Assembly (NCBI GenBank): GCA_039030515.1
Contig: JBCCEA010000001.1
Coordinates: 29,896-93,895 of the forward strand
Source of the DNA: Myxococcota bacterium
Lineage (GTDB): Bacteria; Myxococcota_A; Polyangia; Polyangiales; Houyiibacteriaceae
Reading direction: 5' to 3'
DNA length: 64,000 nucleotides
Below, piece by piece: positions 1-54,482 of this stretch. The position numbers were made by a program, and so were the translations under genes. The notes under the pieces were generated by a model. That model did not search any database, was not told the DNA's origin, and worked only from the letters and a program-made list of their open reading frames with translations. The stretch's first letter is position 1. Each line of letters begins with the position of its first letter.

Positions 1-23
1 CGTGTTCGGCGCATGTATGTGGG

Positions 24-58
24 CAGGGATGAACTGAGACGAACACTCAAGGAAGAGG
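24..58 (+). promoter_or_regulatory. fliC 5' leader with two CsrA-type GGA motifs (CAGGGATGA at 24-32; CAAGGAAGAGG at 48-58, overlapping the SD)
   Basis: Read directly. The second motif overlaps the Shine-Dalgarno 6 nt before ATG 65. The first resembles the CsrA consensus ACARGGAUGU. Confidence 0.4.
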
Positions 59-64
59 TGTACC

Positions 65-916
65 ATGGCGATGACCGTAGTCACGAACGTGCCGTCAATG
101 ACAGCACAGCGAAATCTCAACAAGACGAATAACTCTTTAAATAAGAGCTTACAGCGTCTGTCGAGTGGATTGCGAATAAACACCGCAGCGGATGATGCGG
201 CGGGTCTGGGCATTAGTGAAAAGCTACAGTCTCAGATTCGCAGCATGGCCCAGGCGGAGCGAAACGCGGGTGACGCGGTCAGTCTGTTACAGACTGCCGA
301 GAGCTCGCTAAGCGAAATGAGTGGAATTGTCACCCGCATGCGCGAATTGACGATTCAGGCAGCCAACGACACCGTCGGGTCGACAGAGCGGCAGTTTCTT
401 GACGACGAGCTCACGCAGCTCCGAGACGAGTTTGATCGCATCGCGTCGGTTACGGAGTTCAATGGCACCAAACTCATCGATGGTAGCGTTTCGGGTACCA
501 ACCAGCTCACGTTCCAGGTGGGTACCGGCGCGACCAGCAACGACCGAATCGAGGTCAGCATTGGAACGACAACAGCGGGTTCTGTAGGTACTACCGCTGC
601 TACTTCGGGCTTGAATGCGGTCGGTCTTACGACCCTCACTGCAGCCCAAGGTTCGCTTGCTATCCTTGATGAGGCCATCAGCGATATCTCGACGCAGCGT
701 GCGACGTTGGGCGCGTCGCAAAATCGGATGGAGGTTACGATCTCCAATCTATCCTCTGCTCGAGAGAATCTCTCGGCGGCGAATTCTCGGATTCGCGATG
801 TGGATGTAGCCAGTGAGTCAGCCAATCTGACTCGAGCGAACATCCTGACCCAGGCAGGTGTCTCTGTTCTCGCTCAGGCGAATCAGACTCCTACCCTCGC
901 GTTGTCACTCATCTAA
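65..916 (+). CDS. fliC: flagellin (short, 283 aa)
   Basis: N-terminus NLNKTNNSLNKSLQRLSSGLRINTAADDAAGL and C-terminus TRANILTQAGVSVLAQANQTPTLALSLI are canonical flagellin D0/D1. SD GGAAGAGG lies upstream. Confidence 0.95.
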   Translation: MAMTVVTNVPSMTAQRNLNKTNNSLNKSLQRLSSGLRINTAADDAAGLGISEKLQSQIRSMAQAERNAGDAVSLLQTAESSLSEMSGIVTRMRELTIQAANDTVGSTERQFLDDELTQLRDEFDRIASVTEFNGTKLIDGSVSGTNQLTFQVGTGATSNDRIEVSIGTTTAGSVGTTAATSGLNAVGLTTLTAAQGSLAILDEAISDISTQRATLGASQNRMEVTISNLSSARENLSAANSRIRDVDVASESANLTRANILTQAGVSVLAQANQTPTLALSLI

Positions 917-933
917 TGGGTGCGCGCGAAGCG

Positions 934-961
934 CTCCCGGGACTGATCCCGGTCCCGGGAG
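934..961 (+). terminator. perfect 10-bp-stem GC-rich hairpin after fliC (CTCCCGGGAC-N8-GTCCCGGGAG), no U-tract
   Basis: Inverted repeat read directly, 18 nt after the fliC stop. The missing T-run makes intrinsic termination uncertain. Confidence 0.35.
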
Positions 962-1071
962 CGGGGGCGCGTCTTGAGTACGCTATAAAAAGGCCACGGA
1001 ACCGTCGTAAGATCGCCAAGCTTCTGACAGAGAGCCTGCCCGATTTCCCATGAGTTTTCAGTCGCAAGCGT

Positions 1072-1087
1072 AGGCATGGGGCATGCA
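1072..1087 (+). promoter_or_regulatory. candidate sigma-54 promoter (aGGCAT-N5-aTGCA) upstream of fliD
   Basis: GG and GC are spaced as in TGGCAC-N5-TTGCW. It lies about 45 nt before the TTG start at 1130, which has AGGAG 6 nt upstream. Confidence 0.35.
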
Positions 1088-1129
1088 TCACAGCGTCTGC
1101 AATCGAACCTCAAGGTTTAGGAGCGTTCC

Positions 1130-2494
1130 TTGACTCAGCCCCTTGCATCATTTTCCGGATTGGCCTCCGGACTCGACACATCTTCACTTATCGCCCAGCT
1201 GGTCGAAGTCGAAAGCCTTCCCATCGTACGGATGGAGGATCAAAAGGCCGACTACGAATCGATGAGTCGGCGGATTACCGATATCGCTGGTGAAGTCGAA
1301 AACACGCGCACTGAGATCAAAAAGCTCGAAACCGAAGACGATATCCTGACCTATACGGGAACCAGCAGCGACAGCACCAAGGTCGGTGTGACTGCCACAT
1401 CTCTCGCTGTTCCCGGTCAATATACGGTACAGGTTTCGGCCCTTGCTGCGGCTCAGTCGAACGTTTCAGACGGTTTTTCAGATGCCGATACAGTAGGCCT
1501 TTTCGGCACAGGGGACCTCGCCATACAAGTCGGTACCGATACTGCTGTGACAATTAGCATCGACGGTACCGATACTTTGAATACTGTAGCTTCTAAGATT
1601 AATGATTCAGATGCTCGGGCTATCGCATCGGTGATCTTCGATGGAAGTACGTATCGACTACAGGTGGTTGGAGAGGATACCGGAGTTGCGAATACTGTGA
1701 GTTACACAGAGGGTGGATCTCTTGCCTTTGACTTCGAAGGTACTTCTGGTGGCTTAAGCAATCAGCTTGTTGCGGCTGTCGACGCCGCCTTTTCGGTAAA
1801 TGGCCTTGCAATGACCCGAAGTTCAAACGCGGTAGATAGCGCTATTCCGGGATTTCGACTGAATCTGTCGGACACGACCACAAGTGCGGTGACCATATCC
1901 GTAGCCCAGGACACTTCGGCGCTTTCGGGCAATGTTCAAGGTTTCGTAGATAAATTTAACTTCATGATGGATCTCATCGACCAGGAACTGCTTTTTGACG
2001 GTACTGTTCGATTGGGGGATTCGTTGCGCGGAGATTCGGCTCTTCGGAGCACTCAGGAGCAGTTTCGTTTGCTCATAGTTTCACAGGTAAACGGACTTTC
2101 CGGCGAGTATGATACTTTTGCTCAGCTGGGAGTGAGTATCGATCAGACAGGAACACTTACTTTCGACTCGGCCATGCTAAGTACCGCACTTACGGATGAT
2201 CCCGATTCGGTTGTCGAGTTTTTCACGGGAAATGATACCGCCGACGGCTTTGTCAGCCTCTTTGATTCACTTACGGATACCTACACCAACGCCGACAATG
2301 GAGTTCTGACGGCGCGAACCGATGGACTCGCGGACCGAGTTACCGATTTGGATGATCAAATCGCGAGAACTCAGACTCGGATCGACGCTTATGAAGCGCG
2401 CTTGCGTCGGCAATACACGAATTTGGAGACTACGGTGAGCAGTCTTCAAAGCCAGGGCGATCAGCTTCTGGCTGCTTTGGGATCGGTCAGCTAG
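1130..2494 (+). CDS. fliD: flagellar filament cap protein (HAP2)
   Basis: N-terminus FSGLASGLDTSSLIAQLVEVESLPI and C-terminus RIDAYEARLRRQYTNLETTVSSLQSQ are typical FliD. Sits between fliC and fliS. Confidence 0.9.
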   Translation: MTQPLASFSGLASGLDTSSLIAQLVEVESLPIVRMEDQKADYESMSRRITDIAGEVENTRTEIKKLETEDDILTYTGTSSDSTKVGVTATSLAVPGQYTVQVSALAAAQSNVSDGFSDADTVGLFGTGDLAIQVGTDTAVTISIDGTDTLNTVASKINDSDARAIASVIFDGSTYRLQVVGEDTGVANTVSYTEGGSLAFDFEGTSGGLSNQLVAAVDAAFSVNGLAMTRSSNAVDSAIPGFRLNLSDTTTSAVTISVAQDTSALSGNVQGFVDKFNFMMDLIDQELLFDGTVRLGDSLRGDSALRSTQEQFRLLIVSQVNGLSGEYDTFAQLGVSIDQTGTLTFDSAMLSTALTDDPDSVVEFFTGNDTADGFVSLFDSLTDTYTNADNGVLTARTDGLADRVTDLDDQIARTQTRIDAYEARLRRQYTNLETTVSSLQSQGDQLLAALGSVS

Positions 2495-2510
2495 GAGGAG
2501 CGGTATTTCC

Positions 2511-2906
2511 ATGTCCTTTGGTCTCGCACAATATCGAACAGCCCGTGTGCAAACTGCTTCGCCAGTGAGCCTCCTCGTGCAACTCTATGATGCCGCGTTG
2601 AAGCATTTGGGGTCGGCCAAAGAGGCGATAGCGGATGGTGATCACGCAGCGAAAGGGCTCGCTATCGGGAAGGCGCATCGAATCGTTACCGAGCTTCAGG
2701 CCACGCTTGATCATGAAAAAGCCCCGGAGATCGCGGAGCAGCTCGACCGACTCTACGACTTTGTGCTTCATCGAATCGGGGTTGCTAACTTCAAAAACGA
2801 TGCAAATTCGATCGACGAAGCGGCTTTGGTCATGGATACGTTGCGAGGCGCCTGGGTTGAGATCGCTCAGAGCGGGGAGCAGCCTCAGGTCAAGGTCGTC
2901 AAATGA
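2511..2906 (+). CDS. fliS: flagellin-specific export chaperone
   Basis: AQYRTARVQTASPVSLLVQLYDAALKHL and EQLDRLYDFVLHRI match the FliS family pattern. 131 aa. Confidence 0.9.
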   Translation: MSFGLAQYRTARVQTASPVSLLVQLYDAALKHLGSAKEAIADGDHAAKGLAIGKAHRIVTELQATLDHEKAPEIAEQLDRLYDFVLHRIGVANFKNDANSIDEAALVMDTLRGAWVEIAQSGEQPQVKVVK

Positions 2907-3244
2907 ATACCGTGGTTTCAATTCTGGAGGCCGTTGAAGCACTCGCCTCTCAGGATCCGGCGGCCTTGACGTTCGAGCAATTTGACGCGCTGGTCACGCA
3001 GCGGGAAGTACTGGTGACACAGCTGGCGAAAGCGATTCGGCAAACGCCTCCGGAGACACCGGAGGTGCAGGATCGCGTGCTCGCTCTGGTCACGCAAGGA
3101 ACGCATCTTCAGCAGGTTGCAAATCTACGGATCGAGGAGATTCAGGCTGCCCTTCACAAAGTGCAGCAAGGCAGGCAGATGCTTCGCGGATATCGGCCTG
3201 GTCGCGGAGAGAGGCTGCGAGGTGCAGTTCGGAACTCTGCCTAG
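2903..3244 (+). CDS. hypothetical helical protein coupled to fliS (possible FliT/FlgN-like chaperone)
   Basis: ATGA overlap with the fliS stop. 113 aa, helical and Gln-rich, ending QQGRQMLRGY. The function is only inferred from position. Confidence 0.5.
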   Translation: MNTVVSILEAVEALASQDPAALTFEQFDALVTQREVLVTQLAKAIRQTPPETPEVQDRVLALVTQGTHLQQVANLRIEEIQAALHKVQQGRQMLRGYRPGRGERLRGAVRNSA

Positions 3245-3767
3245 GGTTTTTATACGGCCTAGCGTTTTTGTATTCGCACTTATAGTGCAATGCATGCTGT
3301 CTTCAGAAGTCTTGGCTCAGCAACGTCGCTTTGGTGTGACCTTTGATTCGGGTTCGGGCATCTCTATGGCTTCCGGACAGGAAGATGTTGTCACGCGTCG
3401 AACTCCGATATTTCTGGATGCCGGTGTGCGAACTTTTGTCGACACAAGACCTGAGCTTGCCTACGCGGGAGCCCTCAGAGTCGAGGTCGATGGCCGCGCG
3501 AGCGTGGGAGTGGTGGCTCGGGTGGAGTACTCGGTTCCGCTCACTCGGAGCCTCACCTTCAGGCCTCAGGGAGGTCTGAATCTATTTTTGGCACCGTTCA
3601 GCATGTTCGGCCCTGAGCTTGGTTTCGCGTTGCGCCTCGCGCTCGATCCCAAAGCAGCCCTGGTCGCGCGCGGGCTTATCGACGGCTATCTATGGGGCAG
3701 CGATGTGCCCGACGATACGGCGGTAGTCATGATCAACGGCACGCTCGGATTAGAGCTGCTTTTATGA
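3222..3767 (+). CDS. putative secreted / outer-membrane beta-strand-rich protein
   Basis: GTG 3222 preceded by GGAGAGAGG. Signal-like RVFIRPSVFVFALIVQCMLSSEVLA-QQ. Alternating hydrophobic pattern thereafter. The ATG at 3117 would overlap the upstream gene by 128 nt. Confidence 0.45.
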   Translation: MQFGTLPRVFIRPSVFVFALIVQCMLSSEVLAQQRRFGVTFDSGSGISMASGQEDVVTRRTPIFLDAGVRTFVDTRPELAYAGALRVEVDGRASVGVVARVEYSVPLTRSLTFRPQGGLNLFLAPFSMFGPELGFALRLALDPKAALVARGLIDGYLWGSDVPDDTAVVMINGTLGLELLL

Positions 3768-4240
3768 AAGGTGTCCGCAGAACCGTCCGCAGCTCAGGCT
3801 TTGCCCGAGTTGCGTTTCTGGTGATTTTGGAGGTCTCGCTGTGGTCGGTTTCGGCGTGCGGTGACTCTTGCGTTCGACATAGCGACTGCCCGGGAGATCA
3901 AGAGTGTGTTGTGGGTGTGTGCACAATTTTGGCATCCGAGGCGTCGGTTGGGGATGCCAGTCAGGAGGCTGGATCGATCGATGGAGCGGCCGGCGGCGAG
4001 GGCGGAGTTGTGGACGCCACCGTACTGGTCGATTCGGCGGTTGTGGATTCAGCGGTCGATGGAGCGGCCGGCGGCGAGGGCGGAGTTGTGGACGCCACCG
4101 TACTGGTCGATTCGGCGGTTGTGGATTCAGCGGTCGATGCCGCGGCGACGGATGCAGGGCTGAACGACGCTACGCCAAGCGATGCATCGAGCGATGCTGG
4201 CGCAGTCGACGGAGGCGCTGCGGATTCGGCAGCTTCGTAG
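3764..4240 (+). CDS. Cys-rich lipoprotein with acidic Ala/Asp/Val repeat
   Basis: ATGA overlap with the upstream stop. Lipobox LWSVSA-C, then CGDSCVRHSDCPGDQECVVGVC, then a duplicated 26-aa unit. Confidence 0.6.
   Translation: MKGVRRTVRSSGFARVAFLVILEVSLWSVSACGDSCVRHSDCPGDQECVVGVCTILASEASVGDASQEAGSIDGAAGGEGGVVDATVLVDSAVVDSAVDGAAGGEGGVVDATVLVDSAVVDSAVDAAATDAGLNDATPSDASSDAGAVDGGAADSAAS
3980..4135. repeat. perfect 78-bp tandem duplication (2 copies) inside the lipoprotein gene
   Basis: GATGGAGCGGCCGGCGGCGAGGGCGGAGTTGTGGACGCC... repeats exactly with period 78, giving the 26-aa unit DGAAGGEGGVVDATVLVDSAVVDSAV twice. Confidence 0.9.
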
Positions 4241-5353: not shown

Positions 5354-6472
5354 TTAGCGAGACGCGAGCTTCAATGCTCGCACCAAATCGCTTGCGTTGT
5401 TGGCGACGGCCTGTGCGGTTTGCGTCGCGATCACGCCGTCCCGCACCAGGCGGATCAACATCCGATCAAAAGAGTGAGAGCCTACCTCGCTGGAGCACGT
5501 GTCGAGTGCGGCAGCCAGGCCCCGGAGACGACTCCCGTCTCGAATGCACTCCATGATGGTTGGGGCTGGAACGAGGATTTCGGTGGCAAGCACCAGTTCG
5601 CTGCCCCCTCGTTTGGGGATGAGTCTTTGGGACACGATCGCGCTGAGGCAGTCTGCAAGTCGTTGACGGGTCGCGTCGCGCTGATCTTCCCCGTAGAAGT
5701 TGACGATTCGTGAGATCGCTCGCGTGGCGTCCTTGCTGTGCATCGTCGACACGACGAGTCGGCCTGACTCTGCGGCGGTGATGGCGACGTTGATGTCTTG
5801 ATGGTTTCGGAGCTCTCCGATGAAGATCACGTCCGGGTCTTCACGCAGGGCGCCTTCCAGTCCCTCTTCGAAAGAATCGACATCTCTGCCCACCTCGCGC
5901 TGCGAGAATCCCGAGTTGACATCTTTGAAGACAAACTCGATCGGGTCTTCGATGGTGACGATATGTTTCGAGGTCGTTTTGTTGATGTACTCGAGCATCG
6001 AAGCGATCGTGGTTGACTTGCCGTTCCGAGTGGCTCCGGTGACCAGGATCAGACCTCGGTTCTGCATTGCGATGCGCTTCATCACCGGTGGAAGTCGCAG
6101 GCTCGTGAAGTCTGGAATCTCGCTTGGAATGTTTCTGGCGATGAGGCCGAGCGTCCCGTTTTGCTTGTAGAGATGGCAGCGAATGCGGGTCACGTTCGGT
6201 ATCTGACATGAAAAGTCGCACTGGTTGCGCTTGATGAGATCGAGAGAGATCCCTGCCCATCGCGCAAGCGCACTCGCTCCTCCGGTGATCGTGGCCTCGT
6301 CGAGCGGGGGGTGGTCGAGAGGACAGAGCTGACCTCGAATACGGACCATCGGGGTAGCGGCGGCCCGAAGGTGGATGTCGGAGGCTCCGGCGGCGAGCGC
6401 GCCCTTTAGAATTCTCAGTACCGTTTCCTGCGCTTTGTAGTTCTCACCCTCGCTCGGCGTGGCCGCCTTCAC
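5354..6472 (-). CDS. PilT/PilU-family type IV pilus retraction-type ATPase (variant Walker A GATRNGKST)
   Basis: Motifs seen: ASDIHL, Walker A GATRNGKST, Asp box IVTIEDPIEF, Walker B DPDVIFIGELR, His box VVSTMHSKDA. Confidence 0.9.
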   Translation of the reverse strand: MKAATPSEGENYKAQETVLRILKGALAAGASDIHLRAAATPMVRIRGQLCPLDHPPLDEATITGGASALARWAGISLDLIKRNQCDFSCQIPNVTRIRCHLYKQNGTLGLIARNIPSEIPDFTSLRLPPVMKRIAMQNRGLILVTGATRNGKSTTIASMLEYINKTTSKHIVTIEDPIEFVFKDVNSGFSQREVGRDVDSFEEGLEGALREDPDVIFIGELRNHQDINVAITAAESGRLVVSTMHSKDATRAISRIVNFYGEDQRDATRQRLADCLSAIVSQRLIPKRGGSELVLATEILVPAPTIMECIRDGSRLRGLAAALDTCSSEVGSHSFDRMLIRLVRDGVIATQTAQAVANNASDLVRALKLASR

Positions 6473-7932
6473 GACTTTGCCATTTCAACCCGATTGCGAC
6501 CCGCGTTTTTGGCGGCGTAGAGCGCTCGGTCGGCGTTTTCGATCAGTTCCTCTGGGTTTTCTGCCGCAAGTCTCGAGTCACAGGTGACGCCGAGGCTCGC
6601 GGTAACCCGCAGCGGTTCGCCATGATAGTCGACCACTTTGGCCTCGATGGCTTCCCGCATCTCTTCCGCAAGTCGGGCTGCCTCTTTGGCTTCGGTGTTC
6701 GGCATGATGACGCAGAACTCTTCTCCGCCAAATCGGGCCGGAAAGTCGGACTTCCGCAGATGGTCCTTCAGCGCTGCGGCGACCGAGCTGAGCACGAGGT
6801 CGCCGGCCTGGTGCCCATGGGTATCGTTGAACGCCTTGAAGTGGTCTACGTCGATCATGGCGACTGCGAGGGGGAGGCCTCTCTTACGGCTGCGCTCGAA
6901 CTCCCTTGTGATCGTTTCATCGAGGGCTCTTTTGTTCGGCAGTTTGGTCAGCGCATCGCTCAAGGCCATCGTCTTGAGTACTTGGTTGGCTCGCCTCAGT
7001 TCCGTCGCAAGCACTTCTTTTTCTTCGAGCAGGCGTTCAAGTCGGCGCACCGCACCTTCGTACTGTACGTTCAGCTGGAAGAGCTCTTCGGCGGCGTCCT
7101 TGATCAAGTCTTCGAGATTTGCCTGAGGCCTAAGGGTACGTTCAAAGTCTCGCGCGCATTCTTCAACTTTTATGGGTATCGAGTTAAGTAGTTCCTCGAT
7201 TATTTGCTCATCAAGCGCAAGGTGAACCCCTGCTTCGATCGCTTGCGCTCGTAGTTTGTGGGTAGGGCCTCCTTCAAAAACGGCCGCAAGGCGTTCTGCC
7301 GCCCAGCTCAATCGCGCGAGCTTGTCCTCTGGAGGTTCGAGTTGGTGATGGCATTCGATAGCGAGGGCGGTCGCCTGAGGCATGCCGTATTCCCGGGCGA
7401 GGCGAGCGCCTTTTTCAGGGTGCGCCATCCATCCTTCGGCACGCTCTTGAGTAGGACGGTGCAGCGCCGGTGAAGCCGCAAGGGCTGCGGCACGACTCAA
7501 ATCGGTTCGCGCATGAGAGAGCAGCCCGAGTTCCAGCAGGAGTCCCGTGGTGAATACCTCCGACTCGTCAGGATAATGCACGGCATGGGCAAGCTGCGCG
7601 ATCGCTACCGCCCGACGAAGACAGCACGCCAAGAGCTGTCTTCCTTCTGGGGTATCGGGCGCCATATCGGTGACGGCGATGTTTAATGCGAGGTTGCGAA
7701 TGCCGCGCACCCCGAGTACCGCACAAGCACGTCGAATGTCGGTCACCTTACTACGACGTAGGAGTAAGGGGCTGTTGACCAGGGACAGGACCCGGACGGT
7801 GAAGGCCGGATCGCTCTGTATCAGTCCTGCAACGTACGGCAGGGAGCAATCCGGCTGCATGGCCGCACTCACGATCTGCACCGCTAGGGCAGATATGGGT
7901 GAGCTAGTTTGTGAATCGGTATGCCCGGTCAT
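6469..7932 (-). CDS. HDOD-coiled coil-GGDEF diguanylate cyclase (GGEEF active site, RxxD I-site present)
   Basis: N-terminal HDOD (SLPYVAGLIQSDPAFTVRVLSLVNSPL). C-terminal DVDHFKAFNDTHGHQAGD, then RKSD-x5-GGEEF. 4-nt overlap with the pilT-like gene. Confidence 0.9.
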   Translation of the reverse strand: MTGHTDSQTSSPISALAVQIVSAAMQPDCSLPYVAGLIQSDPAFTVRVLSLVNSPLLLRRSKVTDIRRACAVLGVRGIRNLALNIAVTDMAPDTPEGRQLLACCLRRAVAIAQLAHAVHYPDESEVFTTGLLLELGLLSHARTDLSRAAALAASPALHRPTQERAEGWMAHPEKGARLAREYGMPQATALAIECHHQLEPPEDKLARLSWAAERLAAVFEGGPTHKLRAQAIEAGVHLALDEQIIEELLNSIPIKVEECARDFERTLRPQANLEDLIKDAAEELFQLNVQYEGAVRRLERLLEEKEVLATELRRANQVLKTMALSDALTKLPNKRALDETITREFERSRKRGLPLAVAMIDVDHFKAFNDTHGHQAGDLVLSSVAAALKDHLRKSDFPARFGGEEFCVIMPNTEAKEAARLAEEMREAIEAKVVDYHGEPLRVTASLGVTCDSRLAAENPEELIENADRALYAAKNAGRNRVEMAKS

Positions 7933-8018
7933 GAGGCGGCATCACTCCCACATCCCAGGTTTACGTCCATTTGGGGACAAACTGGACCCCTCGGCGTAGA
8001 GGGTCGTTCGTATTTTTT

Positions 8019-8633
8019 TCACGCGGCCGGCGAAGCGGGTTGGGCGACGAGTCCACCGAGTCCCTGAGCCACCAGGGTGTGTCGAACGCCGAGCTCTCGG
8101 CGATCGAGGATCACCTGCTTGCCCTCCCGCGAGTTGAGACCAAGCACGATAGGTGCCGCCAGGTTTACGGTGGCGGGGGCGTTTGGCGGCGCTGTAATCA
8201 CCGCAGCTACCGCGACCTCCTCGTCGTCAAGTCCAGCGATTTGTTGGGCCTCTTCGATTGGGTAGCCCTCAAATACGAGTCTTGCTTCGATGACCAAGAG
8301 TTGAATCTGCGGATCGACGCGTGATACGAGCGCGCGTACGTCGTGCCCCTCGTCGGTTTCGCAGAGCACAAAGCTCGTATGCTCTTGCATCCCGAGCAAA
8401 CCTGCCGGAAAGGCGAGTGCATGCTCGTCTGCCTCGCGGATCTGGACTGCACCGGCCTGTGCGCGCTGATTCTCGCTTTGAATCTTATCCACGAGCTCTC
8501 CTCGATACACCGAGAATTCCTTAGGGGCGTGCACCCCTATTCGTACTCTGCCGCGAGATACCGAAAGGACTGAAATCTGGATGAGTCCTCCGATTTCAAT
8601 TCGCTCTCCTATTTTTCTTGTTAACGTCAGCAT
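8019..8633 (-). CDS. csrA-fliW: CsrA-FliW fusion protein (N-terminal carbon storage regulator domain, C-terminal FliW domain)
   Basis: MLTLTRKIGERIEIGGLIQISVLSVSRGRVRIGVHAPKEFSVYRGELVDKI (CsrA) runs in frame, with no stop, into ALAFPAGLLGMQEHTSFVL...TVNLAAPIVLGLNSREGKQVIL (FliW). ATG 8633 has AAAGGAGAG upstream. Confidence 0.85.
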   Translation of the reverse strand: MLTLTRKIGERIEIGGLIQISVLSVSRGRVRIGVHAPKEFSVYRGELVDKIQSENQRAQAGAVQIREADEHALAFPAGLLGMQEHTSFVLCETDEGHDVRALVSRVDPQIQLLVIEARLVFEGYPIEEAQQIAGLDDEEVAVAAVITAPPNAPATVNLAAPIVLGLNSREGKQVILDRRELGVRHTLVAQGLGGLVAQPASPAA

Positions 8634-8654
8634 CCTTGCTCTCCTTTTGCAGCA

Positions 8655-9000
8655 CGCCTCGCTGGGCCCGAACGCCCGCTTACCTCCGATGCTCGTCGCT
8701 CGAAGTACCGAATGTACGCCTTCGCGTCTGCGCTTCGTGGGCGCAGGGCGTTCGGGCCCATCGAGACGCGCTGCAGTACGCCTCGCCGGTCCGGAAAGGC
8801 CGCGAACCTTTGATGTTCGTCGCTTGACGTACGGAATGAAGGCCTTCGCGTCTGCGCTTCGTGGGCGCAGGGCGTTCGGGCCCATCGAGACGCGCTGCAG
8901 TACGCCTCGCCGGTCCGGAAAGGCCGCGAACCTTTGATGTTCGTCGCTTGACGTACGGAGTGTACGCCTTCGCGCCTGCGCTTCGTGGGCGCAGGGCTCC
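8655..9000. repeat. 124-bp tandem repeat array (2 near-identical full copies plus diverged partial copies at each end) between flgL and csrA-fliW
   Basis: Units 8718-8841 and 8842-8965 differ at 3 of 124 positions. Partial copies lie at 8655-8717 and 8966 to about 9000. Each unit holds the hairpin CTGCGC-N7-GCGCAG and a TCCGGA-containing loop. Confidence 0.9.
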
Positions 9001-9036
9001 TAAGCGAATTGGTGCGCTCGCGATGAGCCAAGTACA

Positions 9037-9921
9037 TCATCGCTGCGCCAAGCTTGGTGGCGGAAGTTCTCCTGCGATCTGAACGGCTGTGTTCAAAGCC
9101 GTTTGGGCTTGATTGAACGCGAAGTACGCATCGACATCCGATTCTCCGACCAGCTCGGTTTGCCGGATGGCCGCTTCATCTTCCACTCGATCTGCCACAG
9201 ACTGTGCAACATCCAGGGCTGCAATCAGTGCACCGGTGGTTCCACGCGCATCGGAGACACGACCATGGGCGATGTCCAGACCGTCAAGCGTGCCTCGAAT
9301 CGCCGGCACATCATCGGCGCGAAGCGCAGTGGACAGATTTTCCAAGACCGCGATCGGGTCGTCCGGTGCTCCCGGAGCGAACGCCGCTTGCGCATTGATC
9401 TTCATCGGCATGCGTACGCCTGGCGCCACTTCCACTTCGCGAACATTTTGATCGCTGACGAATGTGCCCGATGCATCAAAAGGTGGTGCGTCCTCTAGGT
9501 AGCCCGCAAAGAGATAGGCCCCTCCCTGACCCTGGGTGTTCGCCAGAGAGATAAGCTGCTGCCTCAATTCCTCAACCTCCGATGCGGCGTTGAGCCGGTC
9601 TCCGGCATTGAGGGTATCGTTGGCGGTTTGGGTCGCGAGCTCGCGGGCTCGGTTCAGAATGTCGGTGACATTGGAAAGCGTATCGTCAGTGAGCTGCAGG
9701 TTTGCGATAGCGCGCTCGGCCGACTCCTTATGCATGGCGGCACGGGCCTCTCGGCTTCGCTCACGGCGGGCGGCCGCAAAATCCGCCGGATCGTCCGAAG
9801 GGTCCTGAACCCGGCGTCCGGTGGTCAACGTTTCCTGAGCCTGAGCTACTTCTTCACGGGATTTGGCGATGTTGATCCGGTTCAGTTCATAGAGCATGGA
9901 ATCCGTAACGCGCATCACCAT
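9037..9921 (-). CDS. flgL: flagellar hook-filament junction protein 3 (HAP3)
   Basis: MRVTDSMLYELNRINIAKSREE N-terminus with a flagellin-like C-terminus FNQAQTALNTAVQIAG. Follows flgK. Confidence 0.85.
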   Translation of the reverse strand: MVMRVTDSMLYELNRINIAKSREEVAQAQETLTTGRRVQDPSDDPADFAAARRERSREARAAMHKESAERAIANLQLTDDTLSNVTDILNRARELATQTANDTLNAGDRLNAASEVEELRQQLISLANTQGQGGAYLFAGYLEDAPPFDASGTFVSDQNVREVEVAPGVRMPMKINAQAAFAPGAPDDPIAVLENLSTALRADDVPAIRGTLDGLDIAHGRVSDARGTTGALIAALDVAQSVADRVEDEAAIRQTELVGESDVDAYFAFNQAQTALNTAVQIAGELPPPSLAQR

Positions 9922-9924
9922 CTC

Positions 9925-11316
9925 CTATCGCTTGAGGTTGATCAGCTCGGCGAGCATTTCATCCGCGGTTTGAATCACCTGGAGGCTGGTCTGGTAGCTG
10001 CGCTGAAACTGCATGAGGTTGACCATCTCCTCGTCGGTACTCGCTCCGGAAACGGACTCTCGCAGGGTGGAGACCTGTTCAAGTGCAGATTCGGAGGCTT
10101 CTTCCCGAAAAAGTGCATCCGATACGGTCACGCCGGCGTCGCCGATGAGCTCTCGAAGCGCTTCTCCGGCGGTCGCGGTGCTGCCAAGAGCGATCGAGCT
10201 TGTGGCAAGCGCTTGAAGATCGAGGGCGTTGCGGTTGTCCCCCGGTAAGAGCGTGGGGTCTGTGGCTGCCGCGAGCGCTTCAGGCACGCCATCTACGGCT
10301 GAAGAAATTTGCACTTGAGAAGCAGCGCCGCTTGCGGTGCCGATCGTTTCAAATAGATTCCGGCCGGTGATTCCATCCAGTCCATATCCGGCGCTGTGGG
10401 TGCCGTTGTAGGCGGTGGTAAAGTCGAACGCGAGCTGATCGAGCGCGTTTTGTGCGGAGGTCAAACCTCCGTCGCGTGCATCGATCCACCCGCTAAGCTG
10501 TCCGCTCGTAAGACTGGAGGCCACATTCTCTTGGACGCCAGCACTGATGCGGAACACGTCGACGTTGGAAGTCGCGGGATTTCGCTGCGTCGAGAGCGGA
10601 TGCACGGATCCATCGGCAGTGACCAAGGACTGGCCTCCTCCGAGAAGCAGTTGAATGGGGCCATCTTCCTGCTCGAGTACGGTGACCGGGACGACATCGG
10701 CTACTTCACGTACGAGCTGGTCTCGTCGATCTCTGAGGTCGCTTGCCTCAAGCTCAGAAAGCTCCGTTTTTGCAATTTCTTGCCCTAGTCGTGCGATTTC
10801 TTCAAGTTTTCCATTTAGGTCTGCAACTTCGTCTTCTATACGCCCGTTGATGTCCTCGCGTCGCTGGGTCAAGAAATCTGAAGTGGCTCGGAACGAATAT
10901 GCGAGCTGTTCGGCAAGGGTGAGTACCGAGTTGCGGCGCGTAAGGTCCGATGGATCCGAGCTGAGATCGGCGATCGCGTTTTCAAACGCGTCGAGTGCAT
11001 CCGCCAAGTTTCCAGCCTCATCGCCGAACGCCTCGTCGAGGGGTCTTAGCGCCTCTGCGCGCGCGGACGATTCACCCATCATCGAGCGGGCGCCGAGCAA
11101 ACGACGTTCGATGTACGGATCGATGACCCGTTTTTGTCCGACCGCGCGAGAGCCGAGTCCAGGAGATTGCGCGGCGATGGGATCGATGTGTGCCAGCCTC
11201 CGGCTGTATCCCTCCGTGCCGACGTTGGAGGCATTTTGTGAGGAGACCTGCGTTCCGAAGGCATGGCTGCGCATACCGTTGGCTCCCAGATTTAAGATGC
11301 CGAATACGGTCGTCAT
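9925..11316 (-). CDS. flgK: flagellar hook-filament junction protein 1 (HAP1)
   Basis: FGILNLGANGMRSHAFGTQVSSQNASNVGTEGYSRR N-terminus and EEMVNLMQFQRSYQTSLQVIQTADEMLAELINL C-terminus. Confidence 0.9.
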   Translation of the reverse strand: MTTVFGILNLGANGMRSHAFGTQVSSQNASNVGTEGYSRRLAHIDPIAAQSPGLGSRAVGQKRVIDPYIERRLLGARSMMGESSARAEALRPLDEAFGDEAGNLADALDAFENAIADLSSDPSDLTRRNSVLTLAEQLAYSFRATSDFLTQRREDINGRIEDEVADLNGKLEEIARLGQEIAKTELSELEASDLRDRRDQLVREVADVVPVTVLEQEDGPIQLLLGGGQSLVTADGSVHPLSTQRNPATSNVDVFRISAGVQENVASSLTSGQLSGWIDARDGGLTSAQNALDQLAFDFTTAYNGTHSAGYGLDGITGRNLFETIGTASGAASQVQISSAVDGVPEALAAATDPTLLPGDNRNALDLQALATSSIALGSTATAGEALRELIGDAGVTVSDALFREEASESALEQVSTLRESVSGASTDEEMVNLMQFQRSYQTSLQVIQTADEMLAELINLKR

Positions 11317-11320
11317 TCGG

Positions 11321-11638
11321 CTAGATCGCTCCCCTGCGCAGTCCGGACTGCAGGTCCTTGGGTTTGCCGCTCGCGCTGTACGCGATCGATGGCTCTTCGC
11401 CTCCCGTCGCCAACCCTCGGAGGCACGAAACGAGATGTCTCATGAGCCCGATGTTTCGGCGGGACAGCTCGGAAATTTCCTCAAGTTCGGAGTCGTGGAT
11501 GCCGATCTCTTGGATACGTGAAAGGAGGGCCCGCTTCTCTTCCTGAATCTTGAGGAGCTCGTCCAGGTTCGCGTATCGGGTTGCGGTGCGTTCCTTTGCC
11601 AGTACATCCCGAAACTTTTCAATTAAGACGTCATTCAT
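11321..11638 (-). CDS. FlgN-like export chaperone (putative)
   Basis: 105-aa helical protein between flgM and flgK. The call rests on position and composition only. Confidence 0.45.
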   Translation of the reverse strand: MNDVLIEKFRDVLAKERTATRYANLDELLKIQEEKRALLSRIQEIGIHDSELEEISELSRRNIGLMRHLVSCLRGLATGGEEPSIAYSASGKPKDLQSGLRRGAI

Positions 11639-11707
11639 TTTTGGATACTCATGTGGCTAGAGATTCAGCAAGGTGGTTTGAGTAGGCGTAGCCCCACCAC
11701 TTCTGGG

Positions 11708-11986
11708 CTAGCGTTCCTCCTCGAGCATGCGTTCGGCGATGCGTGCCGGATCGATCTCAAAACTACCGTCTTCGATGGCGGCGCGAAGGCGTTCGATCCG
11801 CTCTAGGTCGGGCTTTTGTTCGGCCCGGGCGTCCGCCAGGTGCTTTGCGGCTCCCGAGAGCTCTACCGAGGTGGAGTGCTGCGGACGCACCTCGCTCTGC
11901 CGTTGTTCCTCATGTACTTGCTTTGCACGAGTCTGGCTCGCTTTGATGTCGGCAAGAGTGCTCGCGTGTGGGTCTTGGATCTTCAT
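11708..11986 (-). CDS. flgM: anti-sigma-28 factor
   Basis: 92 aa. C-terminus RIERLRAAIEDGSFEIDPARIAERMLEE is the typical FlgM sigma-28-binding region. Confidence 0.75.
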   Translation of the reverse strand: MKIQDPHASTLADIKASQTRAKQVHEEQRQSEVRPQHSTSVELSGAAKHLADARAEQKPDLERIERLRAAIEDGSFEIDPARIAERMLEEER

Positions 11987-13203
11987 GATGAATGTTCCTC
12001 CAATCGTCGGTTCGGACGCTTCTCCGAGGACCTTGAGGAATAATTCGTAGGCTGAGGTCGAATTTCTCGAGTTGCGGGTGCCTCAGGTCGGTCGGAGTTT
12101 GATGCTCCAGGGGTTCCGGACAGCGGTACTTCGGCGTCTTCCATGGATGTGGAGCGACGAAGTTCAATGATTTCAATGCGCGAGAATCCGCCCCGGGGAT
12201 CGGTTCCACCAAAAGTTCCCGTTCGATTCCAGGTCCGGCGGGTTAAGTGACGAGCGCCATCCACCCGTGCCTCCCAGCCGTCGTAGACGATCTTCTGGAT
12301 CGCTCCGGAGGAGTCGTAGTCGATCGAGTGCACCCGCTCGACGATACCCATATGACCCGCACGCTCAGGATGGGCTGCACTTCCAGTGAGCATGAATGCG
12401 CGACGTCCCTGTAGTATTTCCTGATCGATGGAGGTTGCGCTCGCTCCTGTGACCACTCGACCCCACCCCTTTGGAACCTCACCATCTTCGATGCTCGTCG
12501 TGAGTCCGTTGGGCGCGGGATAGCCCCATCCGTGGGCCCGTGGGGCTACCGGCACCGAAAACCCGGCTCGTCTCGCAAGCTCCATCGTAAACAGATTGCA
12601 CTTGTATTGACCCTGGTAGCCCCCTGCGTCTTGCACGTTGAATGCGGCTATCTCACCGGAAGAGGTACGGGTGTGGTAGTTGCTCGAGAGATCGTCACGC
12701 TGAAGCGTGCCCTCGCGGCTCCAGCGCGTGGACCGCTCGGCGGAAAGAAGTTCCTGGGCGGCTTGCTGAAGTTGGGCAGTCGCTCCCTCGAGTGGGGCGC
12801 CGGTGATCGGACCAAAGTCTACCGACCTCATACGGCGTAGGGTGCCGACGAGTTTTGGGGACGATTCCCCATGCGGCTGGTTGGTCTTCGATGTGCTGAC
12901 GCTTCCAGTCTCCTGAGTCGCTGAAGAACCCAGAGACGCGTCCAGCGCATCTCGAAGCCCAATACCTCCGCCATCCGATAAAGCTTGGGTCAGGGCTTGG
13001 TCCACCAGGTGACCGAATACCGAGGCGCCCGGAGCCTTGCCGAGCATGCCGTCTGAAACGCTGGTTTCTCTCAGCACGCGAACCAGCTGGGCGAGGATGA
13101 GCTCTTCGAACTGACCTGCTGCCTGAGCGGAGTTGGTCTGCTTCGATGGTTGCTGCATCTGCTGCATCTGCTGTGCGATTTCTTCTGTGCCGATGAGCGT
13201 CAT
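11983..13203 (-). CDS. flgJ: FlgJ-like rod-binding protein fused to a CHAP/NlpC-P60-like Cys-His hydrolase domain
   Basis: N-terminal rod-binding motif AAGQFEELILAQLVRVLRET. C-terminal YKCNLFTMELARRAGF...GWG...AGHMGIVERV resembles a papain-like Cys/His amidase. ATGA overlap with flgI. Confidence 0.7.
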   Translation of the reverse strand: MTLIGTEEIAQQMQQMQQPSKQTNSAQAAGQFEELILAQLVRVLRETSVSDGMLGKAPGASVFGHLVDQALTQALSDGGGIGLRDALDASLGSSATQETGSVSTSKTNQPHGESSPKLVGTLRRMRSVDFGPITGAPLEGATAQLQQAAQELLSAERSTRWSREGTLQRDDLSSNYHTRTSSGEIAAFNVQDAGGYQGQYKCNLFTMELARRAGFSVPVAPRAHGWGYPAPNGLTTSIEDGEVPKGWGRVVTGASATSIDQEILQGRRAFMLTGSAAHPERAGHMGIVERVHSIDYDSSGAIQKIVYDGWEARVDGARHLTRRTWNRTGTFGGTDPRGGFSRIEIIELRRSTSMEDAEVPLSGTPGASNSDRPEAPATREIRPQPTNYSSRSSEKRPNRRLEEHSS

Positions 13204-49165: not shown

Positions 49166-49249
49166 GCGGAAGTGGCGGAATTGGCAGACGCGCTAGACTA
49201 AGGATCTAGTGGGGTAATACCCGTGGAGGTTCGAGTCCTCTCTTCCGCA
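49166..49249 (+). tRNA. tRNA-Leu (type II, long variable arm); anticodon read as AAG
   Basis: Acceptor GCGGAAG/CTTCCGC, D-arm GCG-GAATTGGCAGA-CGC, anticodon stem CTAGA/TCTAG with loop CTAAGGA, variable arm TGGGGTAATACCCGT, T-arm GGAGG-TTCGAGT-CCTCT, discriminator A. CCA is not encoded. Confidence 0.85.
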
Positions 49250-53962: not shown

Positions 53963-54139
53963 CGTGGCAGAGGGCCACCCCGGGAACGGTATCGGACAAG
54001 CAAACCAGCGCTCAGGCACCGGAGATGCGATGGTCGCTTTAGGCAACTCAACCGAGAGGTTCAACGCTCCCGCTGCCTTCCGATGACCGCATCGGCTCGT
54101 CTTCAACCGCCATCCCCGAGGCGAGGTCAAAGTGCACCT

Positions 54140-54345
54140 AATTTGAGCAGGTCTCCGGACTGACGGCCGTGAACCAGGTGGCCTTCCCAACGAGCCCTCC
54201 GGCTTGGGGGATTCCCATCCGAAAGCGTCTCGTCAGTGGCATGATCACCCGGGCGTAGACCGAACACCGTGGCGGGTCCGCGTCGGAATCGCACCGACTT
54301 CCCTCTTGGAACTGCCGGTTTTCTCTCCGGATTCCTGCTGATTGC
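54140..54345 (-). promoter_or_regulatory. cobalamin (AdoCbl) riboswitch
   Basis: The minus strand reads ...AGAGGGAAGTCGGTGCGATTCCGACGCGGACCCGCCACGGT...ATGCCACTGACG...TGGGAAGGCC...GTCAGTCCGGAGACCTGCTC, which is the conserved core plus the B12 box. Confidence 0.8.
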
Positions 54346-54482
54346 AAAAAGCAACCAACCCAAAAGGCACACCACACTGCGATCCTCGCAGGCGGAAGTC
54401 AACTCGGTTTGCGGTCTCGGATGTCGCTCGATGAAGCCTGGGTGAGAGCGACGCTAGGCCACGATCGAGTGCGCCCTCAGAG

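Follow-up and report, generated by a model that had tools for sequence, protein, structure and literature searches.

A 64,000-nucleotide stretch of a Myxococcota bacterium genome (GCA_039030515.1, contig JBCCEA010000001.1, positions 29,896 to 93,895; hereafter the window) carries a gene in which the RNA-binding regulator CsrA and its antagonist FliW are encoded as one polypeptide. The fused csrA::fliW gene comprises 204 codons and a TGA stop on the minus strand (8633..8019; positions refer to the window unless another locus is named). Its product belongs to the CsrA and FliW families by profile and by fold, and is not a new category of protein. As read from the sequence, it departs from the known system in three ways: FliW is not a separate protein, CsrA lacks its tail, and FliW lacks its first strand. 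The most likely function, which we favor with some reserve, is that of a self-inhibited CsrA dimer released by flagellin, that is, a single-chain flagellin-FliW-CsrA homeostasis switch.

One reading frame, two domains

The earlier note on this DNA described a single 204-codon open reading frame (ORF) on the minus strand, and the positions of the ATG (8633-8631) and of the TGA stop (8021-8019) bear this out. It also placed a Shine-Dalgarno (SD) sequence 6 nt before the ATG; the start site stands, but the actual spacing is 5 nt (CAAGG). The motif AAGGAUG overlaps the start codon. A mechanically delimited ORF reaches upstream to 8885, the extension falling within a tandem repeat. We retained the start at 8633 because MLTLTR forms the N-terminus of every homologue and because the 204-aa protein is called identically in the NCBI metagenome-assembled genome (MAG). 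Neither a stop nor a change of frame separates the CsrA and FliW parts, as had been claimed; the ORF is continuous and the same single ORF occurs in many genomes. The identical protein is found in two independent assemblies, the NCBI MAG contig and the Logan assembly of run SRR22824269. The 64-kb window contained no further reading frame for CsrA or FliW, in a search confined to the window and the ±6-kb loci, and FliW is not encoded as a separate, titratable protein within the window. A scan of positions 7800-9200 revealed no sigma-70-like promoter and no promoter or terminator signal above shuffled expectation.

Profile searches, which had been proposed as a check on the 204-aa product, place both Pfam families above their curated thresholds. 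The CsrA family (PF02599) covers residues 1-52 and scores 70.8 bits (cut-off 27; E = 9e-20; positions 1-52 of the 53-position profile); the FliW family (PF02623) covers residues 74-187 and scores 74.1 bits (cut-off 25; E = 1.1e-20; positions 2-122 of the 122-position profile). The NCBI csrA equivalog TIGR00202 is also passed (72.2 vs. a cut-off of 70.1). Together with PF02599, it substantiates the assignment of residues 1 to about 60 to CsrA; that of the chain from about residue 62 onward to FliW is upheld by PF02623 and by alignment to the FliW chain of the complex structure 5DMB. The full-length NCBIfam FliW equivalog models are not passed (best NF009799, 74.4 bits vs. 165), and their matches all begin at profile position 5-11, which points to a divergent, N-terminally shortened FliW.

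The junction between the two domains is exceptionally tight. In phmmer comparisons with 5DMB, fused residues 2-61 align to CsrA chain residues 3-62, while fused residues 61-189 align to FliW chain residues 10-140. Since the end of CsrA homology and the start of FliW homology meet at residue 61, there is essentially no linker; the earlier note had described a near absence of linker, and the 5DMB alignments make the junction tighter still. The C-terminal extension of free CsrA past approximately residue 60 is missing, and the chain enters FliW at residue 61. The first FliW strand (residues 1-9) is missing as well, with the 5DMB_A alignment beginning at FliW residue 10-11.

An AlphaFold2 monomer model built on a 22-sequence alignment has a mean predicted local distance difference test (pLDDT) score of 88 and a predicted template modeling (pTM) score of 0.80. 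The CsrA part contains strands at residues 11-35 and a helix at 45-57. The FliW domain is modeled with pLDDT of ~91-97 in most blocks, falling to 86 at residues 91-100, and the lowest-confidence block inside the chain covers residues 61-70 (pLDDT 66). Foldseek matches the model to the CsrA/RsmA chains 2BTI, 5Z38, and 1VPZ with template modeling (TM) scores of 0.74-0.77, and to the FliW structures 5DMD_B and 5DMB_A with E = 2e-8 and TM scores of 0.75-0.76. In this confident model, both domains are predicted to fold as CsrA and FliW.

The fusion is not peculiar to this genome. A protein search returned 22 proteins of 190-237 aa at 40-100% identity, all 22 with both Pfam domains; besides the identical protein, 21 share 40-60% identity. 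The same single ORF is present in 19 GTDB species (L001-L019; one genome per species scanned), which carry the labels Myxococcota, Polyangia, Polyangiales, Polyangiaceae, Sandaracinaceae, or "Deltaproteobacteria." One of these, L016, is a complete 9.07-Mb chromosome. The figure of 19 species is a lower bound, because the genome scan used one peptide pattern, MLTLTRRxGE. The survey of relatives suggested in the earlier note thus finds the same fusion in 19 species genomes and 21 further proteins, and its conservation across many genomes removes the concern, raised at the same time, that a stop or frameshift had been missed. Finally, a profile search of 1.84 billion cluster representatives (50% identity), followed by our own domain parsing, yielded 71 CsrA-FliW proteins with a median pairwise identity of 32%. 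The database names given to fused proteins are only "CsrA" or "FliW." The fused-gene genomes found are all uncultured Polyangia-type MAGs.

Interface residues and a possible flagellin switch

The window protein has all of the residues taken, on the basis of Escherichia coli CsrA mutagenesis, to be the RNA-binding positions (L2, L4, R6, R/K7, V42, R44, and E46). Among the 71 family members, these are kept in 66 (L2), 61 (L4), 67 (R6), 65 (R/K7), 71 (V/I42), 70 (R44), and 71 (E46) proteins. Roles in the CsrA-FliW contact have been reported for CsrA N55 and position 51 and for FliW N108, A111, and Q124 (bioRxiv 10.1101/2020.07.02.184341, PMC7829508). N55 is retained in 64 of the 71, with I, V, L, or M at position 51; the window protein has I51 and N55. 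N55 is not known to have a role besides FliW binding. On the FliW side, the equivalents of Bacillus subtilis N108, A111, and Q124 are N157 (70/71), A160 (61/71), and Q173 (69/71). Within the window's clade, all 41 members have N157, A160, and Q173, and P161 is also invariant. CsrA N55 and position 51 and these three FliW positions are shared with the B. subtilis system, and because N55, N157, A160, and Q173 are almost invariant, the contact between FliW and the CsrA helix appears to be still in use.

The extent of the CsrA part is informative in this respect. Campylobacter jejuni CsrA lacking 15 C-terminal residues (leaving 1-60) binds FliW, while the protein lacking 20 does not (PMC7829508). 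Residues 1-60 of the fusion match this truncation limit and would therefore represent the minimal FliW-binding piece. In that study, CsrA 1-60 suffices to bind FliW, V51 and N55 being critical, and the fusion keeps this part. The C. jejuni construct is a laboratory truncation of a free protein, whereas the fusion is a natural truncation that runs straight into FliW.

In the B. subtilis model, CsrA is inhibited allosterically by bound FliW, which is in turn titrated by cytoplasmic flagellin, and CsrA left free blocks flagellin translation at two GGA sites (PMC6070490, PMC6529632). The exact FliW:CsrA stoichiometry matters and is enforced there by translational coupling (PMC6529632), and the fusion may for this reason be regarded as an extreme form of that coupling. 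The Hag-FliW-CsrA system of B. subtilis and the Geobacillus thermodenitrificans complex 5DMB involve the same two families and the same link to late flagellar genes as the fusion, and GGA sites, one of them at the SD, are present in the flagellin leaders of B. subtilis and, as candidates, in those described below. However, the B. subtilis proteins are separate, diffusible, and translationally coupled in the order fliW-csrA, whereas the fusion is one chain with CsrA followed by FliW. B. subtilis has approximately one FliW per CsrA dimer, compared with one per CsrA monomer in the fusion, which also lacks the CsrA tail, the first FliW strand, and conserved counterparts of P26 or of the K123-D41 pair.

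By analogy, we infer that FliW docks in cis, that flagellin competes with this docking, and that regulation results, as follows. The CsrA domains of two chains would form the usual strand-swapped dimer, and the product would resemble a 2:2 FliW-CsrA complex with each FliW held covalently at the end of a CsrA helix. At rest, the FliW domain would dock on the CsrA helix through N55-Q173 (N55-Q124 in B. subtilis) and hold CsrA in a state that does not bind RNA, such that flagellin mRNA is translated. Accumulating unexported flagellin would bind the same FliW face and displace FliW from the helix and core of CsrA. Once free, the CsrA dimer would block translation by binding to GGA sites of the flagellin leaders, one of these sites overlapping the SD, and export of flagellin would reset the switch. 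One antagonist per CsrA monomer would be fixed by the fusion, with an intramolecular switch replacing the diffusible partner. Flagellin gating of this kind is plausible and fits the conserved interface residues. In B. subtilis, flagellin protects FliW residues 3-11, 22-28, and 95-115 (PMC6070490); this surface includes the N55 contacts and adjoins the fusion point, and competition with the tethered helix is therefore sterically reasonable.

Candidate target sites are present in flagellin leaders. The leader of the window's fliC contains GGA at 27-29 (CAGGGAUGA, 24-32) and again at 51-53 within the SD (CAAGGAAGAGG). The window's fliC has a tandem partner, a second flagellin gene located just outside the start of the window (L037 9225-10070, minus strand); the leader of this second gene features two hairpins with GGA in the loop and CACGGAGGAGAC at the SD. 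Upstream of it, GGGTCTTGAT is repeated about eight times as a microsatellite (L037 10700-10775). The combination of a hairpin-loop GGA and an SD GGA is found in five of the six flagellin leaders examined, from fused and unfused genomes, including those upstream of flagellin genes in the fused locus L003 and in both unfused genomes. As a separate observation, a hairpin (GCGCAGGAUGCGC) is situated ~20-35 nt upstream of the fused ATG in L006, L007, and L018, with AGGAU in its loop and a GGAGG Shine-Dalgarno sequence following. This hairpin looks like a CsrA site, and some members of the fused family may therefore autoregulate, judging from sequence. In the window itself, AAGGAG and AAGGAUG are found around the start codon.

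Several observations weigh against a self-inhibited dimer released by flagellin. The B. subtilis FliW residues that contact CsrA N55 are P26, F58, N108, A111, and Q124 (bioRxiv 10.1101/2020.07.02.184341). P26, which is needed for CsrA binding in B. subtilis, is L80 here and F, P, L, I, or Y across the family, and the F58 equivalent, L113 by our own reading of the alignment, is variable. The K123-D41 salt bridge is not conserved either, with V, K, R, or A at position 172 and P, A, or S at position 41; its absence says little, because its authors report it to be particular to Bacillales (bioRxiv 10.1101/2020.07.02.184341). The missing first FliW strand belongs to the flagellin-protected region 3-11 of B. 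subtilis. A tethered antagonist would be present at a very high local concentration; flagellin may fail to displace it, and inhibition might be permanent. The two GGA triplets in the 64-nt fliC leader are, by estimate, not above chance alone. The search for free csrA and fliW genes covered 64 kb of this genome, and the monomer model does not tell docking in cis, docking in trans, and no docking apart.

Some of these points lend themselves to a different, though unlikely, explanation in which FliW no longer inhibits CsrA. The protein would instead act as a tether or adaptor that links RNA-bound CsrA to flagellin, or flagellin itself would block RNA binding, giving an altered or inverted logic; flagellin mRNA might, for example, be held near nascent flagellin or the export gate. 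The classical complex may indeed be altered, given that FliW has lost its first strand, CsrA its tail, and P26 its conservation, and the salt bridge needed for inhibition in B. subtilis has no conserved counterpart. The C. jejuni CsrA-FliW system is reported to influence flagellin mRNA localization (PMC4894983). The near-invariance of N55, N157, A160, and Q173 is nevertheless hard to explain unless FliW still contacts the CsrA helix, and the absence of a Bacillales-specific salt bridge says little against the self-inhibited dimer.

It is quite improbable that the fused ORF gives rise to two separate proteins, by proteolysis at the junction or by internal initiation, and thus to an ordinary two-protein switch. 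Junction residues 61-70 are the least confident inside the model, and in part of the family the linker is long and proline-rich, reaching ~57 residues. In the window's clade, however, trimming has brought the junction down to a sharp minimum, and the mode of the distance between the cores is 12 residues. Moreover, the products of cleavage would be a FliW lacking the first strand and a CsrA that stops at about residue 60. No conserved start codon or SD is present at the junction; by our own alignment reading, M82 falls within the FliW core and is not conserved.

A permanently self-inhibited relic, with CsrA neutralized in a lineage that no longer uses it, is very improbable. The very high effective concentration of a tethered inhibitor would be compatible with such a state, but the CsrA RNA-binding residues are strongly conserved across a family with only 32% median identity, the position in the flagellar operon is conserved in related species with a captured flank, and GGA sites are kept in flagellin leaders. 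A useless gene would be expected to be lost rather than conserved.

Origin of the fusion and other covalent architectures

Unfused relatives suggest how the fused gene came about. In L020, a Myxococcales MAG, and in L023, separate csrA and fliW genes follow directly after flgL, in that order, and in L023 the csrA stop overlaps the fliW ATG. Geobacter sulfurreducens has the operon flgJKLMN-csrA-fliW (PMC13407953), with the same position after flgL, the same csrA-fliW order, and N55 present; it differs from the fusion in having two separate genes and proteins and in keeping the CsrA C-terminal extension. This Geobacter-type arrangement is probably ancestral. As L020, L023, and Geobacter all place csrA before fliW, the CsrA-FliW order of the fusion reflects the local ancestral gene order. 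The earlier note was correct in describing fliW and csrA of B. subtilis as separate genes in that order (PMC6529632); csrA followed by fliW is not unusual among the relatives considered here.

Neither the tail of L023 CsrA (TTVESEQLESWLRELGDED) nor the MKIETSRFG with which unfused FliW begins is found in the window protein, and CsrA of the unfused relatives is 12-19 residues longer. The junction, which has lost about 19 residues from the end of CsrA and about 9 from the start of FliW, is not a simple read-through. The fusion looks like the result of an in-frame deletion of ~28 codons across the stop and start, or of read-through followed by trimming. These missing codons also bear on whether an assembly or sequencing error, a missed stop or a frameshift, joined two genes: although a single indel could in principle join overlapping genes such as those of L023, and several distant fused library proteins are singletons, one indel is insufficient to remove ~28 codons, the protein is identical in two independent assemblies, and the single ORF recurs in 19 species genomes, the complete L016 chromosome among them, so that for the window's clade the artifact explanation has practically no chance and is effectively refuted. 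Several of the distant singleton fusions outside this clade may be errors.

Spacing between the domain cores across the 71 proteins has a sharp lower bound of 11 residues, a mode of 12, which is the window's value, and a range extending to 57. Members with long linkers keep the motif of the first FliW strand (x-T-x-R-F-G), and some also keep the former initiator Met. In a rough neighbor-joining tree, the trimmed proteins, the window's included, make up one large clade, and unfused L020 and L023 nest among the long-linker forms. One long-linker cluster (P0064) has seven members from several contigs, including a Desulfobaccales MAG. Its proteins join the same domains but retain the CsrA tail and the first FliW strand, for which reason the long-linker forms look like simple read-through; the window's clade is a separate, larger, trimmed lineage. 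Proteins with the reverse order, FliW-CsrA, recur as well (e.g., P0171 and P0075). Given the recurrence of both the long-linker cluster and the reverse order, these sequences suggest that fusion probably happened independently more than once.

Other covalent arrangements, present in sequence databases but undescribed, are common among the best 150 library matches (P0045-P0171 range), which include 64 tandem CsrA-CsrA proteins, four with four CsrA domains, nine FliW-FliW, four reverse-order FliW-CsrA, and one CsrA-CsrA-FliW. Pfam confirmed examples of each architecture. The tandem CsrA-CsrA proteins could possibly be single-chain dimers. In Lysobacterales (L026, L028, L029, L031, L033, L035, and L036, at ~5980-6444), ORFs of ~150-230 aa contain two CsrA-like segments, and some of these loci have a second two-segment ORF just upstream, representing duplicated or tandem CsrA.

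Genomic setting and implications

The features of the locus are collected in Table 1. The fused gene is the last of the series flgJ-flgM-flgN-flgK-flgL, with two flagellin genes within 10 kb. The order on the minus strand is flgA, flgH, flgI, flgJ-like, flgM, flgN-like ORF, flgK, flgL, and then the fused gene; the flgN-like ORF has no Pfam match and is named by position. On the plus strand, fliC, fliD, fliS, and a fliT-like gene occupy 65-3244. Farther along the window are flgF, flgG, fliA, flhG, flhF, flhA, flhB, fliR, fliP, fliO, fliN, and a sigma-54 activator. The order flgI-flgJ-flgM-(flgN)-flgK-flgL-fusion is maintained in most related loci with a captured flank, where the fused gene begins close behind the flgL match.

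Table 1. Positions of the fused gene, its domains, and associated features in the window
Feature	Position	Strand	Basis
csrA::fliW fused gene	8019..8633	-	ORF, Pfam; identical protein in NCBI MAG and Logan assembly
Shine-Dalgarno-like AAAGGAGAG, then CAAGG and ATG	8639..8647	-	Sequence read directly
CsrA domain, residues 1-60 (beta strands, then helix 45-57 with I51 and N55)	8454..8633	-	PF02599, TIGR00202, model, Foldseek
Junction, residues 61-72 (GAVQIREADEHA)	8418..8453	-	phmmer against 5DMB chains; comparison with unfused L020 and L023
FliW domain, residues 62-190, without first strand of free-standing FliW	8064..8450	-	PF02623, Foldseek, pLDDT
Spacer between flgL and fused gene: three tandem 124-nt units, long GC-rich hairpins	8648..9019	.	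Folding z = -5.4
flgJ-like, flgM, flgN-like ORF, flgK, flgL upstream of fusion	9037..13203	-	Pfam; synteny in related loci
Flagellin gene fliC and leader, candidate CsrA target	1..916 (fliC 65-916)	+	Pfam Flagellin_N, Flagellin_C

The 124-nt units of the spacer are 77-100% identical to one another, and each forms a hairpin with 30-nt arms. They are specific to this genome and do not occur in related genomes, and both short-read contigs of this organism end inside them. An Rfam search of the repeats gave no match. We considered a CsrB-like decoy and rejected it, as GGA (AUCGGAGG) is present only in the proximal unit and the repeats are absent from all relatives. The units may represent an element of mRNA processing or stability, or a mobile repeat.

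Downstream of the fusion, a PilT-like secretion ATPase is encoded in 11 of the 19 fused loci (L002, L003, L006, L007, and L013-L019). Between the fusion and this ATPase, both the window (5354-7932, minus strand) and L002 encode a diguanylate cyclase of HDOD-GGDEF type, with an HDOD-HD protein beyond. These neighbors hint at a conserved link of flagellin control, cyclic di-GMP, and a pilus-type motor. Elsewhere in the window, the product of an ORF at 3692-4240 (plus strand), possibly secreted or lipoprotein-like, shows an exact internal duplication of a 28-residue segment (DGAAGGEGGVVDATVLVDSAVVDSAV...). A cobalamin riboswitch (54129-54364, minus strand; 83 bits) has a TonB-dependent receptor downstream and adjoining CbiZ/CobD/CobQ salvage genes; like a tRNA gene at 49166-49249 (plus strand), it is ordinary.

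A full-text literature search found no description of a natural CsrA-FliW fusion, though an earlier mention is possible. Because databases label the fused proteins "CsrA" or "FliW," surveys that count csrA and fliW separately misclassify these genomes. Cultured Myxococcota are known for gliding, not swimming. The genome described here is labeled Myxococcota and has a complete flagellar gene set, and the locus documents a complete flagellar system together with its regulator in uncultured Polyangia.

The way in which FliW inactivates CsrA is a matter of debate; published work regards the inhibition as allosteric and non-competitive, with an unclear mechanism (bioRxiv 10.1101/2020.07.02.184341). 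A natural fusion with a minimal junction fixes both stoichiometry and geometry and offers a tool for this question. It shows which parts are dispensable, namely the CsrA tail and the first FliW strand, and flagellin-triggered release should be measurable in one molecule. The need for strict stoichiometry seen in B. subtilis would here be met by gene fusion. We are evenly divided on the broader proposition, according to which the protein is an intramolecular, flagellin-gated conformational switch, one polypeptide sensing a secreted structural protein and repressing its mRNA, and covalent Csr architectures have been reached repeatedly. These architectures comprise the trimmed CsrA-FliW proteins of Polyangia, the long-linker forms of Desulfobaccales, FliW-CsrA, and tandem CsrA-CsrA. 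If the proposition is true, they would represent a largely unexplored design space for the Csr family.

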